Shown here: positions 1-63,392 of the stretch, piece after piece
How the letters are laid out: each line of letters begins with the position of its first letter
Numbering within the stretch: the stretch's first letter is position 1
From: Escherichia coli
Lineage (GTDB): Bacteria > Pseudomonadota > Gammaproteobacteria > Enterobacterales > Enterobacteriaceae
DNA: 64,000 nucleotides
Assembly: GCF_046105845.1 (NCBI RefSeq)
Contig: NZ_CP151004.1
Strand: one strand, 5' to 3'
Program-made: the position numbers and the translations under genes
Notes under the pieces: model-generated
The model's input: the letters and a program-made list of their open reading frames with translations, nothing else
Databases searched by the model: none
Told to the model about the DNA's origin: nothing

Positions 1-3000
1 GTGGTGTATTCCACATTGTTAATCGTAACGGTAAGCGGCGTGCCTTCAGCCAGCCCCGAGCTACTGCCGCTGACCACCAGCGCCTGCCCGTGCTCGATGA
101 TATTGACCACATCATCGCCTGCCACCGTATCGACCCGCAGACCGGGCAGATTGGCGTCGATGGTGATATCCCGCGTGCCGCTGCCGGTGTTGCCGTTTTG
201 ATTGGTGACCGAGGCGCTCACCGTTAAATCGCCATTACCCAGCGCCTGAATAGCGTCCGCCGGAATGCTCACGCTCCAGCTTAATCCCGGCTGTACGGTG
301 GTGGTGTAGGTATTGCCACCCAGCGTAACGGTTACCGCGTCGCCAACGGCGGCTCCAGTCACCTGCCCGCTGATGGTTTGCGCGACGCCCGCTTCGGCGG
401 CGTTAATAATATCGTCGGTTGCCACCGGGTTAATGGTCACGCCGGGCAGCGCGCTGTCAACCAGCACGTTATGGCTGGCGGTGGCGCTGTTGCCGATATT
501 ACTCGTCACCGCCGCCGTTACCGTGTAGTTGGCCTGGCCCAGTGCGGTTACCGCCGATGCCGGAACGGTGACGCTCCAGTTGCCGGAGGCGTCGGTCGTG
601 GTGGTGTAATTTTGCCCGTTCAGCGTCACGGTGATGGCGGTATTGGCTGGCTGATCGCTGGTACCGGTAATCTGGACATCAGCCCCTTTTTCGCTGGCGT
701 TTATCACATCATCGCCAGCAATGGTGTTAATACCAATTACTGGCGCGGCGGTATTGACCGTGACAGTCAGTGACTGGCTGCCCGTGTTTCCGGCGCGGTC
801 AGTCACTGACACGTTGATCGGATAACTGCCATCCACCAGTCCGCTGACAACGGAAGCCGGAACGCCCAGGCTCCAGTTGCCGGAACCATCCACCACCGTG
901 GTGTAATCCACATTATTCAGCGTCACGGTGACGATATCGCCCGCCTGAGCGCCAGTAACCGTGCCGCTGATGATTTGCGCCTGGGTGTGTTCCGGCGTGT
1001 TGATGACGTTATCGGTCGCCACCGGATTAATGGTTACCACCGGCGGCGTGGCATCGACCAGCGCCACGCGTGAGACGCTGGTCGGGTTACCGGCGATATC
1101 GTTCACGCTGGCGGTGACGGTGGCGTTGCCGTCAGCCAGTGCGCCAACGTTGGCGGCGGGAACGGTCACGCTCCAGGTGCCGTCTGGCTGCACGACGCCC
1201 TGGTACGTCTGCCCGTTCAGCGTCACCGTTACCGTCTGCCCCGGCTGGGCGTCGGTGGTGCCGGTGATTTGCAGATCCTGACCACTTTCGGCGGCGTTAA
1301 TGATGTTATCAGCGGTCAGTGGATCGATACTTAAGGCCGGGGCCTGGCTGTCGACGGTAATGGTGCGAGAGGTGTTGCCGGTATTGCCGCTGAGATCCGT
1401 CACAGAAGCGGTAATCGCCACCGCGCCGTCAGGCAGATTTCCCATCGCGGCGGCAGGTACCGTCAGACTCCAGGAGCCATCAGCCTGCACGGTAGTAGTA
1501 AAACTCTGTCCAGCCAGGGTTACTGTGACGGTTTGTCCTGTCTCGGCCTGTTGAGTGCTACCGGTAAGGGTCAGTGGCGCACCTTTTTCTGCGCCACTGA
1601 TAATGTCATCGCCGGAGACGGTGTTAATGGTGATTAACGGAGAGACACCGACCAGCGTGATTGCTCGAGACGCCGCGCCGGTATTTCCTGCAGTATCTGT
1701 CACGGTGACGAAAATCGTATTGGCTCCGCGATCCAGCGTGCGGGTTACCGCTGGGTCCAGCGCCACATTCCAGCTGCCATCTGCCAGCACAATGCCCGTC
1801 AGGACATGAGTGCCCAATTTCACCGTTACCGTATCGCCAGGAGAAGCACCGCTGACTTGTCCGGAGATGATCTGCGCGACGGCCTGCTCAGCATTATTAA
1901 GAATATCGTCGCCCGCTACGGTATTAACACTGACCACGGGTGCTGAGGTATCTACCGTGAAATTCGCGCTGTGGCTGGTGCTGTTCCCAGCCCGATCGCT
2001 GACACTGGCATTGACAGCGTAATTACCCTCCGCCAGCGCCTGGACTTCCGTGGCTGGCAGCGTCACTTGCCAGGTTCCGTCGCTACCGACGGTTGCTGTA
2101 TGGCTTTTCCCGTTGACGGTCAGTGTTACGGTTTGCCCCGCTTCTGCATTCGACGTGCCGCTCAGTACCAGCGCGACGTTATGTTCCGCAGCACTGATGA
2201 TGTTGTCCTGAGCGATGGTGTTGATGGCAAGCGTTGGCGGTTGGGTATCGACCGTTAAAAGCTGCGCGCCGGTGACCGTATTGCCTGTGGCGTCTTTCCC
2301 GCTGACCAGCACTGCCTGATTCCCTTCGCCTAACGCCTGTGCATCGGCGGTCGGCACCTGCACGCTCCAGGCACCGTTAGCGCCTACGCTGGTGGTGTAG
2401 GTTTTGCCGTTTAGCGTAACGGTGAGTTCTGTTCCCTGCGCCAGATGGCTACTGGTACCAGAAAGCGTAAACCCGGCGGCCTGTTCGCTGGCGTTAATAA
2501 TGTTATCGCCTGCGGTGGTGGCAACCTGCACGCTGGCCTGACTATTGTCGATGGTTAACGTTATCGAACCGGCGTCAGTGATGGTACTGCCGACAATTTG
2601 CACCACTGACCAGGTATGTTCACCTGCACTTTGCGTGGGTAACGAGACACTCCAGTGACCGTTGTTGTCTACCTGAGTACTGGCAATAGTATTGCCGTTA
2701 CTGTCTTTAATCTGAATAGTCGCCCCCGCCTGCCCGCTGCCGCTAAAGGTTGGCGTGGTATCATCGGTGATGTCATTGGTGGCGAGAATGCCGCGCTGAT
2801 CGCCCTGATTATCGATAACTAAAAATGATGGTGTGGCAACACCCGGTTCAGGCACAGGCTCAGCGGGTGGCGTAGGGTTATTAATCACTTCCGTTTTCGA
2901 GTCGCCATCACCACCGCTTGCCAGCAGTGCACCAAGCGCACCACCACCTACCGCCGCCCCCGCCAGCCAACCCCACGGGAAGGCGCTGGTCTGAGCAACG

Positions 3001-3368
3001 GTATCAAGAAATGGCGCAATGCTTTCAATCGCAGTGGTCTGGGCAGTCAGTTCTACGGGGGCTAATCCACCCGCAGCAGTATCGGCGAAGGTGACATGGG
3101 TTAGCTGTTGCCCATCGGCAAACACCAGTTCCGATTGTTCAGCTGTATTCGCCGCTTGCAGGAAATAACCGTTGCAGCGGATCACCGTGCCGTCCTGCAT
3201 ATAGATCAGCAGGTCATTTCCTTCACGGACGTAACGCGCAACGGCAGAGGCCTGAGCATGAACCTGCACCACGGAAGGCTCATAAATAACAACCGTGACG
3301 TCGCCAGGATTAATCAGCGTTTGTTTGACGGATGTTTTACGCGAAATAACATCAATAATCAGGCTCAT
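1..3368 (-). CDS. Giant tandem-repeat Ig-like adhesin, probable type I secretion substrate; 5' portion only, gene continues past window start
   Basis: Manual minus-strand translation from ATG at 3368-3366 (AGGAA 8 nt upstream) reads MSLIIDVISRKTSVKQTLINPGDVTVVIYEPSVVQVHAQA... with no stops over the stretch checked (3061-3368); downstream shows ~100-aa Thr/Val/Gly-rich repeats. Absent from ORF track because no stop lies in the window. Confidence 0.7.
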   Translation of the reverse strand, partial: MSLIIDVISRKTSVKQTLINPGDVTVVIYEPSVVQVHAQASAVARYVREGNDLLIYMQDGTVIRCNGYFLQAANTAEQSELVFADGQQLTHVTFADTAAGGLAPVELTAQTTAIESIAPFLDTVAQTSAFPWGWLAGAAVGGGALGALLASGGDGDSKTEVINNPTPPAEPVPEPGVATPSFLVIDNQGDQRGILATNDITDDTTPTFSGSGQAGATIQIKDSNGNTIASTQVDNNGHWSVSLPTQSAGEHTWSVVQIVGSTITDAGSITLTIDNSQASVQVATTAGDNIINASEQAAGFTLSGTSSHLAQGTELTVTLNGKTYTTSVGANGAWSVQVPTADAQALGEGNQAVLVSGKDATGNTVTGAQLLTVDTQPPTLAINTIAQDNIISAAEHNVALVLSGTSNAEAGQTVTLTVNGKSHTATVGSDGTWQVTLPATEVQALAEGNYAVNASVSDRAGNSTSHSANFTVDTSAPVVSVNTVAGDDILNNAEQAVAQIISGQVSGASPGDTVTVKLGTHVLTGIVLADGSWNVALDPAVTRTLDRGANTIFVTVTDTAGNTGAASRAITLVGVSPLITINTVSGDDIISGAEKGAPLTLTGSTQQAETGQTVTVTLAGQSFTTTVQADGSWSLTVPAAAMGNLPDGAVAITASVTDLSGNTGNTSRTITVDSQAPALSIDPLTADNIINAAESGQDLQITGTTDAQPGQTVTVTLNGQTYQGVVQPDGTWSVTVPAANVGALADGNATVTASVNDIAGNPTSVSRVALVDATPPVVTINPVATDNVINTPEHTQAQIISGTVTGAQAGDIVTVTLNNVDYTTVVDGSGNWSLGVPASVVSGLVDGSYPINVSVTDRAGNTGSQSLTVTVNTAAPVIGINTIAGDDVINASEKGADVQITGTSDQPANTAITVTLNGQNYTTTTDASGNWSVTVPASAVTALGQANYTVTAAVTSNIGNSATASHNVLVDSALPGVTINPVATDDIINAAEAGVAQTISGQVTGAAVGDAVTVTLGGNTYTTTVQPGLSWSVSIPADAIQALGNGDLTVSASVTNQNGNTGSGTRDITIDANLPGLRVDTVAGDDVVNIIEHGQALVVSGSSSGLAEGTPLTVTINNVEYT

Positions 3369-3470
3369 AATGGCATTCCTGATAAATGGCGCACATCCTT
3401 AGCGAGTCCATTTATCTAAATAAGACAAAGGTAATCACTTAACAACGGCCCACTATTAATAATGGCAGGA

Positions 3471-4826
3471 TTATTTCAAGTCGGGTAAGTCGTTGTATAA
3501 GCCCTGTTTAATTCCCGCTAATGGAATAAGGTTATTCACCGCAGCGGCATAATTTACGGCGGCGACCCAGCCATCATAATTGGCATTTATTTCAGCCGAT
3601 TGCGCCTGAAAGACATCTTGCTCGACGGTTAATAGATCATTCAGACTGCGTTTGCCCAATTTATATTCATTTTGGTACACTTCTCGCGTTTTGTGCGCAC
3701 TTTCGGATTGTGCTAAACCGGCTTCTTCGCGACCTCGTGCGCCGGTCCAGTTCGCATATGCCACAGACGCTCGTTGCAGCACATCCAGTTTTGCCTGTTC
3801 GACCTGCGAGGCAGAGATTTTTTGTTGCCCTTCAGCTTGTTGCACCTGGGCTGAAACTGCGCCGCCCTGATACAGCGGCGCGTTAACGTTCAGTTGTAAC
3901 TGATCATCCCAATACGAGCGGTCGCTGGTCTGGTAGCGCGTTTTGCCCCCCTGAATACTCAGCGTTGGCCAGTATTGCGCTTTCGTTTTTTCCACGCCGT
4001 ACTGTGCTGACTGGCGTAAGTTTTCTGCCGCCAGCACCAGCGGGATGGACTGGTAATCAATATTTTTCAGCGACACCGGCTGCTCGGCTAATTCAGCAGG
4101 TGGCGCGGCTATCGCCTCCGGCTGTACGCCAGTGAGCACCGCCAGTTGCGCTTTGGCGCTTGCCATCTGCGCCTGATATTGCTCCAGCGTTGAGCGCATT
4201 CCGGCAATGCGCGTCTGGGCTTGTAATTCATCCGACGATGAGTTCAGGCCAGCGTTAGCGCGCAATGCCGCCATGTTGTAGACGTTTTCCAGCGAGTGAA
4301 TATTGCGTTGAGCCGCATCGCACAAAGCCTGATAACGACTGACTTCCATATAGGCAGTCGCCGTTTTCTCTGCAACATCGGTTAAGGTTGCCATCAATTT
4401 AAAGCGGTAGCTGTCACGGGCGGCAGTTTGCAGATTGATATCGTTGTTTGTTTTACCAAAGTCATACACCAGCTGTGTCAGGGTTATGCCATACGAAACG
4501 TTGTTATCAAGCCTGCCGCTGGAATCCGTTTGTCGGGACGGCCCCGCGTTGCCGGTTAATCCAACGTGCGGATACCAGGCACTTTTGGCTTCATCAATTT
4601 GCGCTTCGCCAATGCCTATCTGCGCCGCCTGTTGAGTGACGTCGGGATTTCGCGCAAAGGCGCGTAATATACTTTCCTGTAAAGATAATCGGGCAACTGG
4701 CGTTACCGCTGGGGCGTTCGCCCATTGTGGCAGCGGTGCAGCAATTGTAGCTTCTCCCATCACCATAAAACTTATTAAAAAAATAAACCCATTATTTTTA
4801 CGGCTTTTAAACTGGAATCGCGCCAT
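3471..4826 (-). CDS. TolC-family outer membrane efflux protein, probable type I secretion outer-membrane component
   Basis: 451-aa ORF with N-terminal signal-like hydrophobic segment and TolC-like composition; sits directly upstream of the adhesin gene on the same strand. Confidence 0.75.
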   Translation of the reverse strand: MARFQFKSRKNNGFIFLISFMVMGEATIAAPLPQWANAPAVTPVARLSLQESILRAFARNPDVTQQAAQIGIGEAQIDEAKSAWYPHVGLTGNAGPSRQTDSSGRLDNNVSYGITLTQLVYDFGKTNNDINLQTAARDSYRFKLMATLTDVAEKTATAYMEVSRYQALCDAAQRNIHSLENVYNMAALRANAGLNSSSDELQAQTRIAGMRSTLEQYQAQMASAKAQLAVLTGVQPEAIAAPPAELAEQPVSLKNIDYQSIPLVLAAENLRQSAQYGVEKTKAQYWPTLSIQGGKTRYQTSDRSYWDDQLQLNVNAPLYQGGAVSAQVQQAEGQQKISASQVEQAKLDVLQRASVAYANWTGARGREEAGLAQSESAHKTREVYQNEYKLGKRSLNDLLTVEQDVFQAQSAEINANYDGWVAAVNYAAAVNNLIPLAGIKQGLYNDLPDLK

Positions 4827-5129
4827 AGATAAGTCACTTCCTTCCAGGTCATTATTTTAACTGGTTTTTATAACCAGTCTCATTTTATTAAGAAGGGTAA
4901 TAACTTGTGCATCTCTTTTGTCGATCATTGATATGGGCAAAGAAATGCAGCTAAAAAGCTTATACGTTATTTATTTAGAATACACTACGACTTTTAGATT
5001 ACCATCATACACATTAAGAATAATCCACGGTAATAAGTGATTAGCATCACAGATTTATCGCGTATATATCATTTTTTTGTGACTTATTTATTAAAGGAAT
5101 AAGAAAGGAAATTTGAATTAAAGACAAAG

Positions 5130-5152
5130 GCGCAGTACAGGCTGTACTGCGC
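5130..5152 (-). terminator. Hairpin downstream of ybaT
   Basis: Inverted repeat gcgcagtacag/ctgtactgcgc just 3' of the ybaT stop; weak U-tract. Confidence 0.4.
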
Positions 5153-17111: not shown

Positions 17112-17914
<803 letters not shown>

Positions 17915-18018
17915 ATCAGCATACTTGTCCTTAGCCTTCTGCAGTGACAGCTGGTAGTACAGCGTGCTTCTGGCCAGCCCTGCAGCCTTTAACAGGTCAG
18001 ACTGGCAGTGTCCGCACC

Positions 18019-18549
18019 TCAGGCTCCGGATGACTTTCGTTTTTTCTCCAGCTCCTGGCGCTTTTTTTCCAGGAGATGCTCCTGCATGGCTTTCAGATAT
18101 GCATTTTCTGCGCGAAGATAACGCAGCTCATTCTTCATCTCTTCCGGCGTCATGTTTGCCTCGTTTTCATGGGTATCATCAGAACGGGTCATGCTTTTCT
18201 CCTTCCTGCGCCTGATAAAGGCCTCATTACCAGATTTGCGGTAGCCTTTTATCCAGTTTTTAACCGTGTTGTGGCTGGGAATGTTAAACCGGGCAGCTAC
18301 CCGGGGTAGAGACTCAGAATGCCCGAGAGCATAAAGAACCACGCAAAGTTTATCTTCAGGAGAATAGCTACGCTTGTGTCTGCAATCCAGTGCCCGAGGA
18401 CCGTGAAGAAGAAAAAGATTAATCCAGTGTGAGAGGCTGGTGTGAGAAAGTTGAAAGAGTTTTGCCGTAGAAATGATGCCTGCATGACCAGCCAGGTAAT
18501 GATTTACAGCGGCAAGTTTTACTTCAAATGAATGTTTCATAAACTGCAC
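18019..18549 (-). CDS. IS3-family transposase OrfA (HTH plus leucine zipper)
   Basis: 176-aa ORF; C-terminal heptad leucines (LRYLRAENAYLKAMQEHLLEKKRQELEKK). Confidence 0.85.
   Translation of the reverse strand: MQFMKHSFEVKLAAVNHYLAGHAGIISTAKLFQLSHTSLSHWINLFLLHGPRALDCRHKRSYSPEDKLCVVLYALGHSESLPRVAARFNIPSHNTVKNWIKGYRKSGNEAFIRRRKEKSMTRSDDTHENEANMTPEEMKNELRYLRAENAYLKAMQEHLLEKKRQELEKKRKSSGA
18061..18067 (-). other. A AAA AAG programmed -1 frameshift motif at the end of IS orfA
   Basis: Minus strand reads CTG GAA AAA AAG CGC in the orfA frame, the classical IS3-family slippery heptamer. Confidence 0.6.
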
Positions 18550-18591
18550 CTTCAGATGTCAGATTATGTCCAACATTTGGGGTGCAGTTCA

Positions 18592-18654
18592 GCCATCGCA
18601 TCAGGCATTGAGAGCAAAATGCCAGATGCGGCGTGAACGCCTTATCTGGCCTAC
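18592..18654. repeat. REP/BIME sequences: right half of the interrupted REP plus a second REP
   Basis: gccatcgcatcaggc completes the interrupted palindrome; gccagatgcggcgtgaacgccttatctggcctac (18621-18654) matches the REP consensus. Confidence 0.6.
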
Positions 18655-22999: not shown

Positions 23000-24874
23000 T
23001 CAGGAAACCAGCAGCTGGTTCATACGACGAATAAACAGGTTCGGATCTTCCAGCGTGCCGCGTTCTGCCAGCAGCGCCTGATCCAGTAGCAGTTCTACCC
23101 ACTCGCTGAACTTCGCTTCATCTTCAGTATCTGCCGCACGTTTCACCAGTACGTGATCCGGGTTCAGTTCGAAGATGTATTTCACTTCTGGCACTTTCTG
23201 GCCCGCCGCAGCGAACAGTTTCGCCATCTGAGTGCTCATTTCGTCCGCGTCGGTCGAAACGATCGCTGGCGTATCGGTCAGACGGTGAGTCAGACGGACA
23301 TCTTTCACGCGCTCGCCGAGCAGGGCTTTCACACGGTCGATGAACGGAGTCAGTGCTTTCTCCGCTTCTTTCGCGCTCTCATCAACTTCGTCAGCCAGTT
23401 TTTCCAGCGACTCGTCAACTTTAGACACCGACTGGAACGGTTTACCGTCGAACTCAGTCAGATAGTTCATCATCCACTCATCGATGCGGTCGGAAAGTAG
23501 CAGAACTTCGATGCCTTTCTTACGCAGCAGTTCCAGGTGCGGGCTGCTCTTCGCTGCCGCATAGCTGTCTGCAGTGATGTAGTAGATTTTCTCCTGCCCT
23601 TCTTTCATGCGGGAAACGTAGTCTTCCAGAGACACGGTCTGCGCAGAAGAATCGGTATGGGTAGAAGCAAAACGCAGCAGTTTGGCGATCGCTTCCTGGT
23701 TAGCGAAATCTTCCGCCGGACCTTCTTTCAGTACCAGGCCAAACTGTTGCCAGAAGGTCTGGTATTTTTCCGCGTCGTCTTTCGCCAGTTTTTCCAGCAT
23801 TTGCAGCACACGCTTGGTCAGCGCATTGCGCAGGTTACGCGTTACCGTGCTGTCCTGGAGGATTTCACGGGAAACGTTCAGCGGCAGATCGCTGGAGTCA
23901 ATCAGACCACGCACGAAGCGCAGATAGTTCGGCATGAACTGTTCTGCGTCGTCCATGATGAACACACGCTGGACGTACAGTTTCAGGCCATGTTTATGAT
24001 CGCGGTTCCACATATCCCACGGTGCCTGAGACGGAATGTACAGCAGGCTGGTGTACTCCTGCTTACCTTCAACGCGGTTGTGGCTCCAGGTCAGCGGATC
24101 GTTAAAGTCGTGGGCGATGTGTTTGTAGAACTCTTTGTACTCTTCATCGGTGATTTCCGACTTGTTACGAGTCCACAGCGCCTGCGCTTTGTTGATTTTC
24201 TCCCAGGAGATAACGGTTTCGCCGTCTTTCTCTTCGCGTTTTTCGATCTCTACCGGCAGCGCGATATGGTCGGAATATTTGCTGATGATGGAACGCACAC
24301 GCCAGTCATCGAGGAACTCGTCTTCGCCTTCACGCAGATGCAGGGTGATTTCAGTACCACGATCTTCTTTAGTGATGTCGGCAACGGTGTATTCACCTTC
24401 GCCAGCCGATTCCCAGAAGACGCCGTTTTCTGGTTTTTCGCCTGCCGCGCGAGTACGCACGGTCACTTTGTCAGCCACGATAAACGCAGAGTAGAAACCA
24501 ACACCAAACTGACCGATCAGCTGGCTGTCTTTCGCCTGGTCAGAACCCAGGGATTCGAGGAATGATTTGGTGCCGGATTTAGCGATAGTCCCCAGATGGT
24601 CAATCACTTCGTCGCGGGTCATCCCCACGCCGTTATCGGAGATGGTCAGCGTGCGCTTGTCTTTATCGAAAGAGACACGAACGCGCAGTTCGCCATCACC
24701 TTCGTACAGATCCGGGTTAGAGAGCGCACGGAAACGCAGCTTGTCCGCCGCATCGGAGGCGTTAGAGATAAGCTCACGCAGGAAGATTTCTTTATTGGAA
24801 TAGAGAGAATGGATCATCAGGTGCAGAAGCTGTTTCACTTCTGACTGAAAACCACGAGTTTCTTGTCCTTTCAT
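23000..24874 (-). CDS. htpG: Hsp90-family chaperone
   Basis: 624-aa ORF matching recalled HtpG. Confidence 0.97.
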
Positions 24875-24925
24875 GTAGGTCTACCTCAATAATGCCATTT
24901 TAAGGTTAAAAACAGGATGTGGGAG

Positions 24926-24954
24926 AGATGGGGACAAGGGAGAATAATTTCAAG
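24926..24954 (-). promoter_or_regulatory. sigma32 heat-shock promoter of htpG
   Basis: Minus strand reads CTTGAAA (-35) ... CCCCATCT (-10), matching the sigma32 consensus. Confidence 0.7.
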
Positions 24955-24983
24955 CGAGAGCAGGTGATCCTGCTCTCGTTTGC

Positions 24984-25588
24984 TTAAAAACGAATCTTAT
25001 GACGCCCGGCAAGGGAGTGTGACAGCGTGGTGCCATCGACCATTTCCAGCTCGCCGCCAACCGGTACGCCATGAGCGATTCGGCTGGCTTCCACGTCATA
25101 TTGCGCGCAAAGCTCGGCAATGTAGTTAGCGGTAGCTTCACCTTCAACCGTGGGGTTGGTGGCGAGGATCACTTCAGTGATTTTTTCCTCTGCCAGACGC
25201 TGTTCCAGACGATCAAGCCCGATATCATCCGGACCGATGCCGTCCAGCGGTGACAGGTGTCCCATCAACACAAAATAACGGCCTGAAAACTGCCCCGTCT
25301 GCTCAATGGCGTAGATGTCCGCCGGACTCTCCACCACGCAGATTTGACCGTTTTCCTGACGACGCGGATTCGAACAGATGTTACAGACTTCCTGTTCGGT
25401 GAAGGTGCGGCAATCGGCGCAGTGGCCGATTTCCGACATCGCCCGGGTGAGCGCCTGCGCCAGACGCATCCCGCCGCTACGATCGCGCTGAAGCAGCGTG
25501 AACGCCATACGCTGCGCCGACTTCGGGCCAACGCCCGGCAGACAGCGCAGTGCTTCCATAAGCTGTGTTAACAGCGGGCTGGTTTGCA

Positions 25589-25589
<1 letters not shown>
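24984..25589 (-). CDS. recR: Recombination protein RecR
   Basis: 201-aa ORF with C4 zinc finger and Toprim region; start overlaps the ybaB stop (TGATG). Confidence 0.95.
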
Positions 25590-58581: not shown

Positions 58582-60936
58582 CTATTTTGCAGTCACAACC
58601 TGCATGCCAGACGGTTCATTTTGCAGCGCCAGAGTCAGAACTTCCTCAATGCGCTTCACAGGATGAATATCCAGATCGGCAATTACGTTGTCAGGAATCT
58701 CTTCCAGATCGCGTTTATTTTCGAACGGAATTAGCACTGTTTTAATCCCGCCGCGATGCGCTGCCAGTAGTTTTTCTTTCAAACCACCGATCGGCAGTAC
58801 CTGACCACGCAGAGTGATCTCACCGGTCATTGCCACATCAGCACGAACCGGGTTACCGGTCAGGCAAGAAACCAGCGCGGTGCACATAGCAATACCGGCA
58901 CTCGGACCATCTTTCGGCGTCGCACCTTCCGGTACGTGGACGTGGATGTCGCGTTTTTCGTAAAAATCAGGGTTGATCCCCAGTTTTTCCGCACGCGCAC
59001 GAACCACCGTTAACGCCGCCTGAATAGACTCCTGCATCACTTCGCCGAGCGAACCGGTATAGGTCAGTTTGCCTTTACCCGGAACACATGCGGTTTCAAT
59101 GGTCAGCAAGTCACCGCCCACTTCCGTCCACGCCAGACCGGTTACCTGACCGACACGGTTTTCGTTATCAGCGCGACCATAGTCGAAACGCTGAACACCG
59201 AGATAGTCATGCAGGTTATCGCCGTTAATTTCGATATGTTTTAATGACTTATCGAGCAGTAACTGCTTAACCGCTTTGCGACACAGTTTGGAGATTTCAC
59301 GCTCCAGACCACGCACGCCCGCCTCACGGGTGTAATAACGAATAATGCCGATAATGGCGCTATCGTCGACGGTCAGCTCACCTTTTTTCAGTGCATTACG
59401 TTCAATCTGCTTCGGCAGCAGGTGACGTTTGGCGATGTTCAGTTTTTCATCTTCGGTATAACCGGAGAGGCGAATCACTTCCATACGATCCAGCAGCGGT
59501 GCCGGAATGTTCATGGAGTTCGACGTAGCGACAAACATTACGTCGCTGAGATCGTAATCCACTTCCAGGTAGTGGTCGCTGAACGCTACGTTCTGCTCTG
59601 GATCCAGCACTTCAAGCAGTGCGGAGGCCGGATCGCCACGCATGTCAGAAGACATTTTGTCGATCTCATCGAGCAGGAACAGCGGGTTTTTCACGCCCAC
59701 TTTCGCCATTTTCTGGATCAGTTTACCCGGCATAGAACCGATGTAAGTACGGCGGTGACCACGGATTTCCGCTTCATCACGCACGCCGCCCAGCGCCATA
59801 CGGACATATTTACGCCCGGTGGCTTTGGCAATGGACTGACCAAGAGAGGTTTTACCTACCCCCGGCGGCCCTACCAGGCAGAGGATCGGTCCTTTGATTT
59901 TGTTGACACGGCTTTGAACCGCAAGATACTCAAGGATACGATCTTTCACGCGCTCCAGACCATAATGGTCGGTATCAAGGATTTCCTGCGCCTGACGCAG
60001 GTCTTTTTTGACCTTGCTACGCGCATTCCACGGCACCTGTACCATCCAGTCGATATAACCACGCACTACGGTCGCTTCTGCCGACATCGGAGACATCATT
60101 TTCAGCTTCTGCAACTCTGCTTCCGCTTTCTCTTTTGCCTCTTTCGGCATTTTCGCCGCGTCGATTTTGCGCTTCAGGGCTTCGTTTTCGTCCGGCGCGT
60201 CGTCCATTTCACCGAGTTCTTTCTGAATAGCTTTCATTTGCTCGTTCAGATAGTACTCACGCTGGGATTTCTCCATCTGCTTTTTAACGCGGTTGCGAAT
60301 GCGTTTCTCAACCTGCAGCAGATCGATTTCCGATTCCATCATTGCCATCAGATATTCCAGACGTTCGTTAACGTCGGACATCTCCAGAACGGACTGTTTG
60401 TCAGCCAGTTTCAGCGGCATATGTGCAGCAATGGTATCCGCCAGACGCGCCGGGTCGTCGATGCTATTCAGCGACGTCAGCACTTCTGGTGGGATTTTTT
60501 TGTTCAGCTTGATGTAGCCTTCGAACTGGCTGATTGCAGTACGCACCAGCACTTCCTGTTCCCGCTCATCAATGGTCGGCGACTCCAGATACTCCGCCTT
60601 CGCAGAAAAGTGTTCGCCATTGTCAGAGAGCGCAGAAATACGCGCGCGCTGTAACCCCTCGACCAGCACTTTGACGGTGCCGTCAGGCAGTTTCAGCATC
60701 TGCAATATAGAGGCCACGGTCCCGACGGTGAAAAGATCGTTTACACCCGGCTCATCCGTTGAAGCTTCTTTCTGCGCGACCAGCATAATTTTTTTATCAT
60801 GGTCCATCGCCGCTTCCAGACAACGGATGGATTTTTCCCGCCCGACAAATAAGGGGATGACCATGTGCGGATAAACCACCACATCGCGCAGCGGCAATAC
60901 GGGGATTTCAATGCGTTCAGAACGCTCAGGATTCAT
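58582..60936 (-). CDS. lon: ATP-dependent Lon protease
   Basis: ORF trimmed to [37 protein letters not shown]... (784 aa). Confidence 0.97.
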
Positions 60937-61018
60937 AGAGCTCTCTCTTAGTTTAATTTCCGCCAGGTAATCAGATGACACGACTGTGCTTCACGCCATC
61001 TATTAACATGTACGTCAG

Positions 61019-61046
61019 TATATGGGGATGTTTCCCCCACATTCAA
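61019..61046 (-). promoter_or_regulatory. Heat-shock (sigma32-type) promoter of lon
   Basis: Minus strand reads TTGAAT (-35), 13-nt spacer, CCCCATATA (-10). Confidence 0.55.
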
Positions 61047-61123
61047 CGCCGAGAATAGAGGAAAAATTAAAGGGGAGATAAAATCCCCCCTTTTTGGTTA
61101 ACTAATTGTATGGGAATGGTTAA

Positions 61124-62398
61124 TTATTCACCAGATGCCTGTTGCGCTTCCGGCTTGCCATAAATCAGCAACGGCTTGCTTTGACCATCAATTACCGATT
61201 CGTCGATAACCACTTTTTCGACGTCTTCCATGGACGGCAGATCGTACATGGTATCGAGCAGTGCGGCTTCTACGATGGAACGCAGGCCACGGGCACCGGT
61301 TTTACGCGCCATCGCTTTCTTAGCGATAGCATCCAGCGCCTCGTCACGGAATTCCAGATCCACGCCTTCCAGATTAAACAGCGCCTGATACTGCTTGGTC
61401 AGGGCGTTTTTCGGCTCTTTGAGGATCTGAATCAGAGCTTCTTCGCTCAGTTCATTCAACGTTGCTACAACCGGCAGACGACCAATGAACTCAGGGATCA
61501 GACCAAACTTGATCAGATCTTCCGGTTCAACCTGCGCCAGCAGCTCGCCTTCACTTGCTTTGTCAGATTTCGCTTTTACCGTCGCGCCAAAACCAATGCC
61601 GGAGCCGGTTTCTACACGATGGGAAATCACTTTATCCAGACCAGCGAACGCACCACCACAAATAAACAGGATCTTAGAGGTATCTACCTGCAAGAACTCT
61701 TGCTGCGGGTGTTTACGCCCGCCCTGCGGTGGAACGGCGGCAACCGTACCTTCAATCAGTTTCAACAGTGCCTGCTGTACGCCTTCACCGGAAACGTCTC
61801 GGGTAATGGACGGGTTGTCTGACTTACGAGAAATCTTGTCGATTTCATCGATGTAGACAATCCCGCGCTGCGCTTTCTGTACGTCGTAATCGCACTTTTG
61901 CAACAGCTTCTGAATGATGTTTTCAACGTCTTCGCCCACATAACCAGCTTCGGTCAGCGTGGTTGCGTCGGCCATGGTGAACGGGACGTCCAGCAGGCGC
62001 GCCAGCGTTTCAGCCAGCAGCGTTTTACCGGAACCGGTCGGACCGATCAGCAGAATGTTACTTTTACCCAACTCGACACCATTGCTGGTATCGCCGTTGC
62101 GCAGACGTTTGTAATGGTTGTATACCGCGACCGCCAGCACTTTTTTCGCCTGTTCCTGGCCGATAACGTAATCGTCCAGGTGGTTGCGAATTTCATGCGG
62201 CGTCGGTAGCGCACTGCGTTCACGATGCGGTGCAACTTCTTTAATCTCTTCGCGAATGATGTCGTTACATAAATCAACACATTCGTCGCAGATATACACG
62301 GATGGACCGGCAATCAGCTTGCGCACTTCATGCTGGCTTTTGCCGCAAAAAGAGCAATACAGCAATTTGCCTGAGCCATCTTTGCGTTTATCTGTCAT
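61124..62398 (-). CDS. clpX: ATP-dependent Clp protease ATP-binding subunit ClpX
   Basis: 424-aa ORF with N-terminal zinc-binding C4 motif and AAA+ domain. Confidence 0.97.
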
Positions 62399-62523: not shown

Positions 62524-63147
62524 TCAATTACGATGGGTCAGAATCGAATCGACCAGACCGTATTCCACCGCTTCAGGGGCGGAAAGGAAGCGATCGCGCT
62601 CGGTATCACGTTCAATCTGTTCTAATGATTGACCCGTATGAAGCGCCATAAGTTCATTCATGCGCCCTTTAACTTTCAGAATTTCACGGGCATGAATTTC
62701 GATATCGGTCGCCTGGCCCTGGTAGCCGCCCAACGGCTGGTGAATCATCACGCGCGAATTCGGCAGGCAGAAACGTTTACCTTTTGCCCCTGCAGTCAGC
62801 AAGAAAGCGCCCATCGAAGCCGCCTGGCCCATACAGATGGTGCTGACATCAGGCTTGATAAACTGCATGGTGTCATAGATAGACATCCCGGCAGTGATCA
62901 CCCCGCCTGGGGAGTTAATGTACAGATAGATATCTTTTTCTGGGTTTTCTGCTTCCAGGAACAGCATCTGCGCCACAATCAGGTTAGCCATGTGGTCTTC
63001 AACCTGGCCAGTCAGAAAAATGACGCGTTCCTTAAGTAGACGAGAATAGATATCAAAAGAGCGCTCACCTCGTGAGGTCTGTTCAATGACCATCGGCACC
63101 AGCGCCATATGGGGTGCAAAGTTATCTCGTTCGCCGCTGTATGACAT
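62524..63147 (-). CDS. clpP: ATP-dependent Clp protease proteolytic subunit ClpP
   Basis: 207-aa ORF matching recalled ClpP precursor. Confidence 0.97.
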
Positions 63148-63392
63148 TTCCGTCTCCTGGATAAAATTGAAAAAACCTGCTGTACCGATTGTAACCTTAT
63201 GGACGGATTATCAGCTAGTCCCTGTGTTATGGGTACGGCATCACCATATTTCAAGCATAACAATCTTTTGTTGTTACGCTAACACCGAAAGAGGCTTTTC
63301 GCACGGTTCCATGCAAAATTCATGACAAAAAAAAGCCCACCACCTGGCGGTGACGGGCCTTTGTGCGAATTTAGCGCGTTATGCTGCGTAAA

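Follow-up and report, generated by a model that had tools for sequence, protein, structure and literature searches.

Sigma-32 heat-shock promoters upstream of htpG and lon in a 64,000-nucleotide stretch of Escherichia coli DNA

The stretch of DNA considered here (64,000 nucleotides, hereafter the window) aligns in reverse orientation, with about 98% identity, to positions 455,824-513,896 of Escherichia coli K-12 MG1655, and shows 100% identity to that genome across the recR-htpG and clpX-lon intergenic regions. The htpG region was matched in 5,424 of 5,426 complete E. coli genomes. The genes bordering these two regions, together with clpP, are as follows:

23000-24874, minus strand: htpG coding sequence, 624 aa (ORF list; NCBIfam NF003555 at full length, 862 bits; RefSeq annotation)
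24984-25589, minus strand: recR, ORF encoding RecR
58582-60936, minus strand: lon coding sequence, 784 aa, from ATG 60936 (NCBIfam NF008053 aligned over 1-784 of 784, 1818 bits; MG1655 annotation)
61124-62398, minus strand: clpX, ORF encoding ClpX
62524-63147, minus strand: clpP, ORF encoding ClpP

The Lon reading frame matches the Lon equivalog model end to end. When called mechanically, it comprises 799 aa, opening at GTG 60981; both the K-12 annotation and the family model point instead to ATG 60936 and a protein of 784 aa, and this ATG is the true start codon. Elsewhere in the window, positions 1-5136 form an accessory region that is absent next to ybaT in K-12 MG1655 and that 957 of 5,426 E. 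coli genomes carry in full. It contains a TolC-family outer-membrane gene (3471-4826, minus strand) and part of a giant adhesin gene, annotated in other genomes as the BapA-related adhesin SiiEA (siiEA). Additionally, about 1.4 kb lacking in K-12 is inserted between gsk and ybaL, at about 17160-18596; its two ORFs, both on the minus strand, encode transposase HTH and rve integrase domains, which identify the insertion as an IS3-family element.

E-sigma-32 reads a -35 element, (C)TTGAAA, and a -10 element, CCCCATNT, situated 13-14 bp downstream of it, and starts transcription a few nucleotides further on. The features of this type in the window, along with those lying next to or across them, are given below:

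24948-24954, minus strand: htpG -35 element CTTGAAA, 7/7 to the sigma-32 consensus
24926-24933, minus strand: htpG -10 element CCCCATCT, 14 nt after the -35, read from the sequence
24918, minus strand: htpG transcription start site (TSS), an A located 8 nt past the -10 octamer, with the ATG 44 nt further on (two published datasets)
24948-24989, minus strand: recR-htpG hairpin, RNA fold of -22.6 kcal/mol, z = -5.5
61041-61046, minus strand: lon -35 element TTGAAT, 5/6 to TTGAAA, common to the sigma-32 and sigma-70 readings
61019-61027, minus strand: lon sigma-32 -10 element CCCCATATA, 13 nt after the -35, read from the sequence
61017-61022, minus strand: sigma-70-like -10 element TATACT, 18 nt after TTGAAT and overlapping the sigma-32 -10 (consensus scan, 9/12)
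61009-61011, minus strand: lon TSS, A61011 by RACE-seq and A61009 by Cappable-seq
61069-61093, minus strand: clpX intrinsic terminator (terminator scan), an 11-bp stem with a trailing AATTTTT, 22 nt ahead of the lon -35
63227-63255, minus strand: clpP sigma-32-type promoter CTTGAAA-N14-ACCCATAA (relaxed scan), with its TSS at A63219

Read along the minus strand from 24954 to 24926, the htpG promoter is CTTGAAA TTATTCTCCCTTGT CCCCATCT, with a spacer of 14 and a -10 element ending 52 nt upstream of ATG 24874. Its counterpart at lon, from 61046 to 61019, is TTGAAT GTGGGGGAAACAT CCCCATATA, with a spacer of 13 and a -10 element ending 83 nt upstream of ATG 60936. When the -35 of lon is extended to the heptamer GTTGAAT, it agrees with the consensus at 5/7 positions, leaving two mismatches, and the octamer CCCCATAT is matched at all specified positions. 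A preliminary description of this DNA had placed the two motifs at 24926-24954 and 61019-61046. These coordinates are exact, and both motifs lie on the minus strand, i.e., the strand of both genes, which had been left unstated. The same description had allowed a spacer of either 13 or 14 after the CTTGAAA of htpG; the motif is present, with a spacer of 14 and not 13. The similar promoter that it had noted upstream of lon is likewise found, in the form TTGAAT-N13-CCCCATATA.

A search of the 64 kb on both strands for exact matches to TTGAA-N12-17-CCCCAT recovers two sites, those of htpG and lon, against 0.15 expected, and a count of two was reached by 2 of 100 shuffles. The full 15-position consensus CTTGAAA-N13/14-CCCCATNT, as present at htpG, arose in none of 200 dinucleotide-preserving shuffles. 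On its own, CCCCATNT is not enriched in the window (8 found versus 6.7 expected); hence, the signal resides in the bipartite arrangement and its position, and the octamer by itself is no evidence. With up to two mismatches permitted, three sites are obtained where 0.9 would be expected, and three are likewise attained in 11 of 200 shuffles; the lon site, with its two mismatches, is not significant on sequence alone. All three of these sites are on the minus strand, upstream of the heat-shock genes htpG, lon and clpP and in the correct orientation for them. The other sites, with three mismatches, fall within genes or have the wrong orientation; they were set aside.

With respect to the third of these sites, a clpP start has been published at U00096.2 455829, the 51-mer printed for it ends 8 nt past ACCCATAA, and sigma-32 is among the sigma factors bound there. 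A second, stronger clpP start (455801) lies 28 nt upstream of 455829. A separate start is located inside the 3' end of clpP, upstream of clpX, at U00096.2 456426, which corresponds to about 62622 of the window on the minus strand; it is recorded with 827 reads and with binding of sigma factors H and E, and no obvious sigma-32 consensus is apparent in its printed 51-mer.

Published maps of transcription starts in K-12, whose sequence is identical in these regions, agree with the two promoters. Cappable-seq (Ettwiller et al. 2016, PMC4782308) places a start for htpG at U00096.2 494300 on the plus strand with a score of 125, and one for lon at U00096.2 458039, again on the plus strand, with a score of 189; these are the dominant starts upstream of the two genes, their neighbors scoring 3-10. 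Sequencing of 5'-triphosphate RACE products (Cho et al. 2014, PMC3923258) yields 494300 for htpG and 458037 for lon, and the 51-mers printed in that study contain both elements and can be matched directly to the window, where their last bases are A24918 and A61011, respectively. The published starts thus fall on the gene strand, 8 nt past the -10 octamer at htpG and 9 or 11 nt past it at lon. As tabulated in the RACE-seq study (PMC3923258), the heat-shock sample yielded the lon start, and the htpG start is represented by just 29 reads and flagged for stationary phase only, not heat shock.

The preliminary description had proposed such a comparison with mapped starts. It has now been carried out, with 494300 and 458037/458039 all fitting the -10 elements and no inconsistency found. 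That description had also regarded the two promoters as a sanity check on strand and start calls, which is valid for the strand but not for the start codon of lon: the mapped lon start is upstream of both GTG 60981 and ATG 60936, so the choice between them is not settled by it.

Sigma-factor occupancy points in the same direction. By ChIP-chip, H (RpoH) is bound at the htpG start, and both D and H are bound at the lon start (PMC3923258); further, RpoH was found by ChIP-exo in a separate study to occupy htpG at one predominant site, despite several annotated promoters. Neither promoter appears in the tables of a genomic SELEX screen performed in vitro with the RpoH holoenzyme, which recovered 20 of 322 RegulonDB RpoH promoters (PMC5493296). 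The same paper never mentions htpG and refers to lon in passing only, as Lon protease. The absence of both promoters from that screen might be counted, at most weakly, as a negative for sigma-32 recognition.

Conservation of the htpG element was examined in a sample with one genome per species, assembled by means of a degenerate pattern for a coding motif (14 protein letters) and hence independent of the promoter. In the 112 proteobacterial species with enough upstream sequence, CTTGAAA-N12-16-CCCCATNT was sought within 260 nt, with 6,591 windows from the same loci as controls. The site is perfect in 46 species, has one mismatch in 40 and two mismatches in 18, so that 104 of the 112 species (93%) carry it with up to two mismatches, versus 0.15% of the controls; spacers of 13 and 14 bp are the commonest. 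In an alignment of 15 taxa (Enterobacterales, Shewanella, Pseudomonas, Halomonas and a Burkholderiales MAG), CTTGAAA and the A of the htpG start are invariant, with surroundings that are not alignable. For lon, 114 distinct loci were collected from metagenome contigs by means of a coding motif, and in the 300 nt upstream of the gene a site with up to two mismatches is present in 42% of them, against 0.38% of controls. In the enterobacterial-like contigs of this set, TTGAA and CCCCATATA stand out as invariant islands, with the spacer and the 5' UTR having diverged. These patterns of sequence conservation indicate that both elements have been kept by selection over long evolutionary distances.

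Within E. coli, a lon 45-mer is identical in 5,411 of 5,417 genomes. The corresponding 44-mer of htpG differs at one position in 3,277 of the 4,925 E. coli genomes that match it. The window and K-12 share an A at 24920 (position -2; CCCACA), and both of the variant genomes examined, along with most other genera, have a T there (CCCTCA). This A24920T change, which lies outside the -35 and the -10, is the only common variant of the htpG 44-mer within E. coli, a species in which most genomes other than the window and K-12 probably have the T.

Taken together, the sequence, the identity of the genes, the identity to K-12, the published starts, sigma-factor occupancy and deep conservation support the reading that the two sites are the native promoters through which sigma-32 (RpoH) drives the heat-shock expression of htpG and lon in E. 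coli, and we consider this almost certain. The preliminary description had expected heat-shock promoters at both places, an expectation that is borne out by the HtpG and Lon ORFs, the K-12 identity, the published starts and the binding of sigma-32. Heat or misfolded protein would raise the level of sigma-32, and with it the levels of HtpG, Lon and ClpP. In mechanistic terms, RNA polymerase with sigma-32 would initiate at a purine 8-9 nt past the -10 octamer, and a temperature upshift or misfolding, on raising sigma-32, would be expected from established knowledge to raise transcription of htpG and lon.

The situation at lon calls for closer consideration on account of TATACT. The lon starts are 9 or 11 nt past CCCCATAT, slightly further from the -10 than the 8 nt seen at htpG and clpP, and they fit TATACT equally well, lying 6 and 8 nt beyond it. 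It could accordingly be argued that the lon site is essentially a sigma-70 promoter, TTGAAT-N18-TATACT, with an incidental match to CCCCAT. In favor of such an argument are the 9/12 score of the consensus scan with an 18-bp spacer, the binding of sigma-70 in ChIP-chip, the distances of 61011 and 61009 from TATACT, which are typical for sigma-70, and a strong Cappable-seq signal in an entry with no heat-shock condition evident. However, this argument has to contend with the fact that sigma-32 is bound there as well and that the start is seen under heat shock. Moreover, the CCCC is dispensable for a sigma-70 -10, yet it is invariant among enterobacterial-like relatives that have diverged in both the spacer and the 5' UTR, and sigma-32-like sites are enriched about 100-fold upstream of lon across proteobacteria. 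Additionally, an 18-bp spacer with a -35 of 5/6 and a -10 of 4/6 amounts to a mediocre sigma-70 promoter. We hence regard exclusive use by sigma-70 as unlikely, and dual use as the more likely of the two. Since TATACT overlaps CCCCATATA and binding of sigma-70 is recorded there, lon probably has a dual sigma-70/sigma-32 promoter, in which the shared -35 TTGAAT together with TATACT would probably sustain a basal level of sigma-70 expression, beginning at essentially the same position. A literature search on overlapping sigma-32 and sigma-70 use at lon found no paper treating it directly.

The lon promoter is also a site of recurrent disruption. Its G5-N6-C4 spacer is a known hot spot for insertion of IS186, according to the citation of SaiSree et al. 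(J Bacteriol 2001) in PMC3045373. In the window, the hot-spot region (61024-61038, minus strand), comprising spacer and -10, retains an intact G5-N6-C4, and the promoter is uninterrupted. The lon promoter region is split in about 55 of 5,424 complete E. coli genomes. In one isolate, FELIX_MS533, an IS421/IS186 end joins between GAAACATCCC and ATAAGCGC, inside the CCCC of the lon -10, and a deletion fuses clpX to entD with the loss of lon and the intervening genes. Derivatives of E. coli B, unlike the window, have an interrupted lon promoter.

At htpG, the structural context of the promoter raises a different set of questions. The hairpin between recR and htpG has a core stem, GAGAGCAGG/CCTGCTCTC, at 24977-24956, and an outer stem in which the region of the recR stop codon is paired with a G plus CTTGAAA, i.e., with the -35 of htpG itself, such that the hairpin directly abuts that element. 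At this position, other enterobacterial genera possess a hairpin that differs in sequence, and in several of them it abuts CTTGAAA. In a consensus fold, 6 of 11 pairs display a compensatory change and several are broken, a result that is indicative only, as the alignment was ungapped and genera with a 13-bp spacer are one base off register in it. The terminator scan did not call this hairpin, and a poor U-tract follows it (CUUGAAAUUAUUCU). The hairpin is probably the terminator of recR adjoining the -35 of htpG. Alternatively, it could couple read-through from recR to the expression of htpG, or shape the promoter DNA for the binding of sigma-32; such a role is very unlikely, and a compact terminator-promoter junction, as the ordinary reading, is far more likely.

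The same features also bear on the proposal that htpG is mainly expressed by read-through from the dnaX-ybaB-recR operon, with the consensus match contributing little. The poor U-tract and the failure of the terminator scan to call the hairpin make some read-through plausible. Nevertheless, Cappable-seq captures only primary 5'-triphosphate ends, and its score of 125 at 494300 contrasts with 10 at the nearest upstream start, 493189; sigma-32 occupancy is recorded at htpG; and conservation of the promoter extends to species whose upstream context differs. Read-through as the main source of htpG expression is thus extremely improbable. A scan of the htpG promoter for sigma-70-type sites found no sigma-70-like site, which argues against a housekeeping promoter there. 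Finally, the notion that both matches are functionless chance occurrences of a short consensus, for which one might invoke the chance frequency of CCCCATNT alone and the insufficiency of the two-mismatch lon site by sequence statistics, has practically no probability left, as the window contains the bipartite pattern nowhere else and both sites, correctly oriented, precede heat-shock genes by 50-85 nt, and as the notion is refuted by mapped starts at the expected distance and strong cross-species enrichment upstream of htpG and lon.

The promoters and their start sites are already in the literature, as are the IS186 hot spot and the binding of both sigma factors at lon, and nothing in them is new. 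The value of the exercise lies in calibration: the window is E. coli in reverse orientation, with htpG, lon and clpP on the minus strand, and a simple bipartite search of the 64 kb, run at the strict setting, recovers known heat-shock promoters and no false positives.

In comparison with known systems, the sigma-32 consensus, as cited in PMC9104697 from Nonaka et al. (Genes Dev 2006), consists of a -35 TTGAAA, a spacer of 13-14 bp and a -10 CCCCATNT. The htpG promoter fits all of its specified positions, and the lon promoter all except the last base of the -35 hexamer, where it has T instead of A; lon further differs in having G rather than C before TTGAA. The spacers, 14 at htpG and 13 at lon, are both within the 13-14 bp range. 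The agreement has a historical side, in that the htpG and lon promoters are themselves among those from which the sigma-32 consensus was derived. Specifically, promoter P1 of htpG (C62.5) was reportedly used for this purpose by Cowing et al. in PNAS in 1985. The promoter in the window is identical in sequence to the htpG P1 of K-12, with the A24920 allele common to both, and the lon promoter is likewise identical to that of K-12 lon (capR), no difference being present in either case. The promoter of clpP, in the clpPX operon, is said to be sigma-32 dependent according to work of Kroh and Simon from 1990. It shares the architecture of the htpG and lon promoters, with its start 8 nt downstream, and differs from them in its weaker -10 (ACCCATAA), in the binding of several sigma factors and in its second start.
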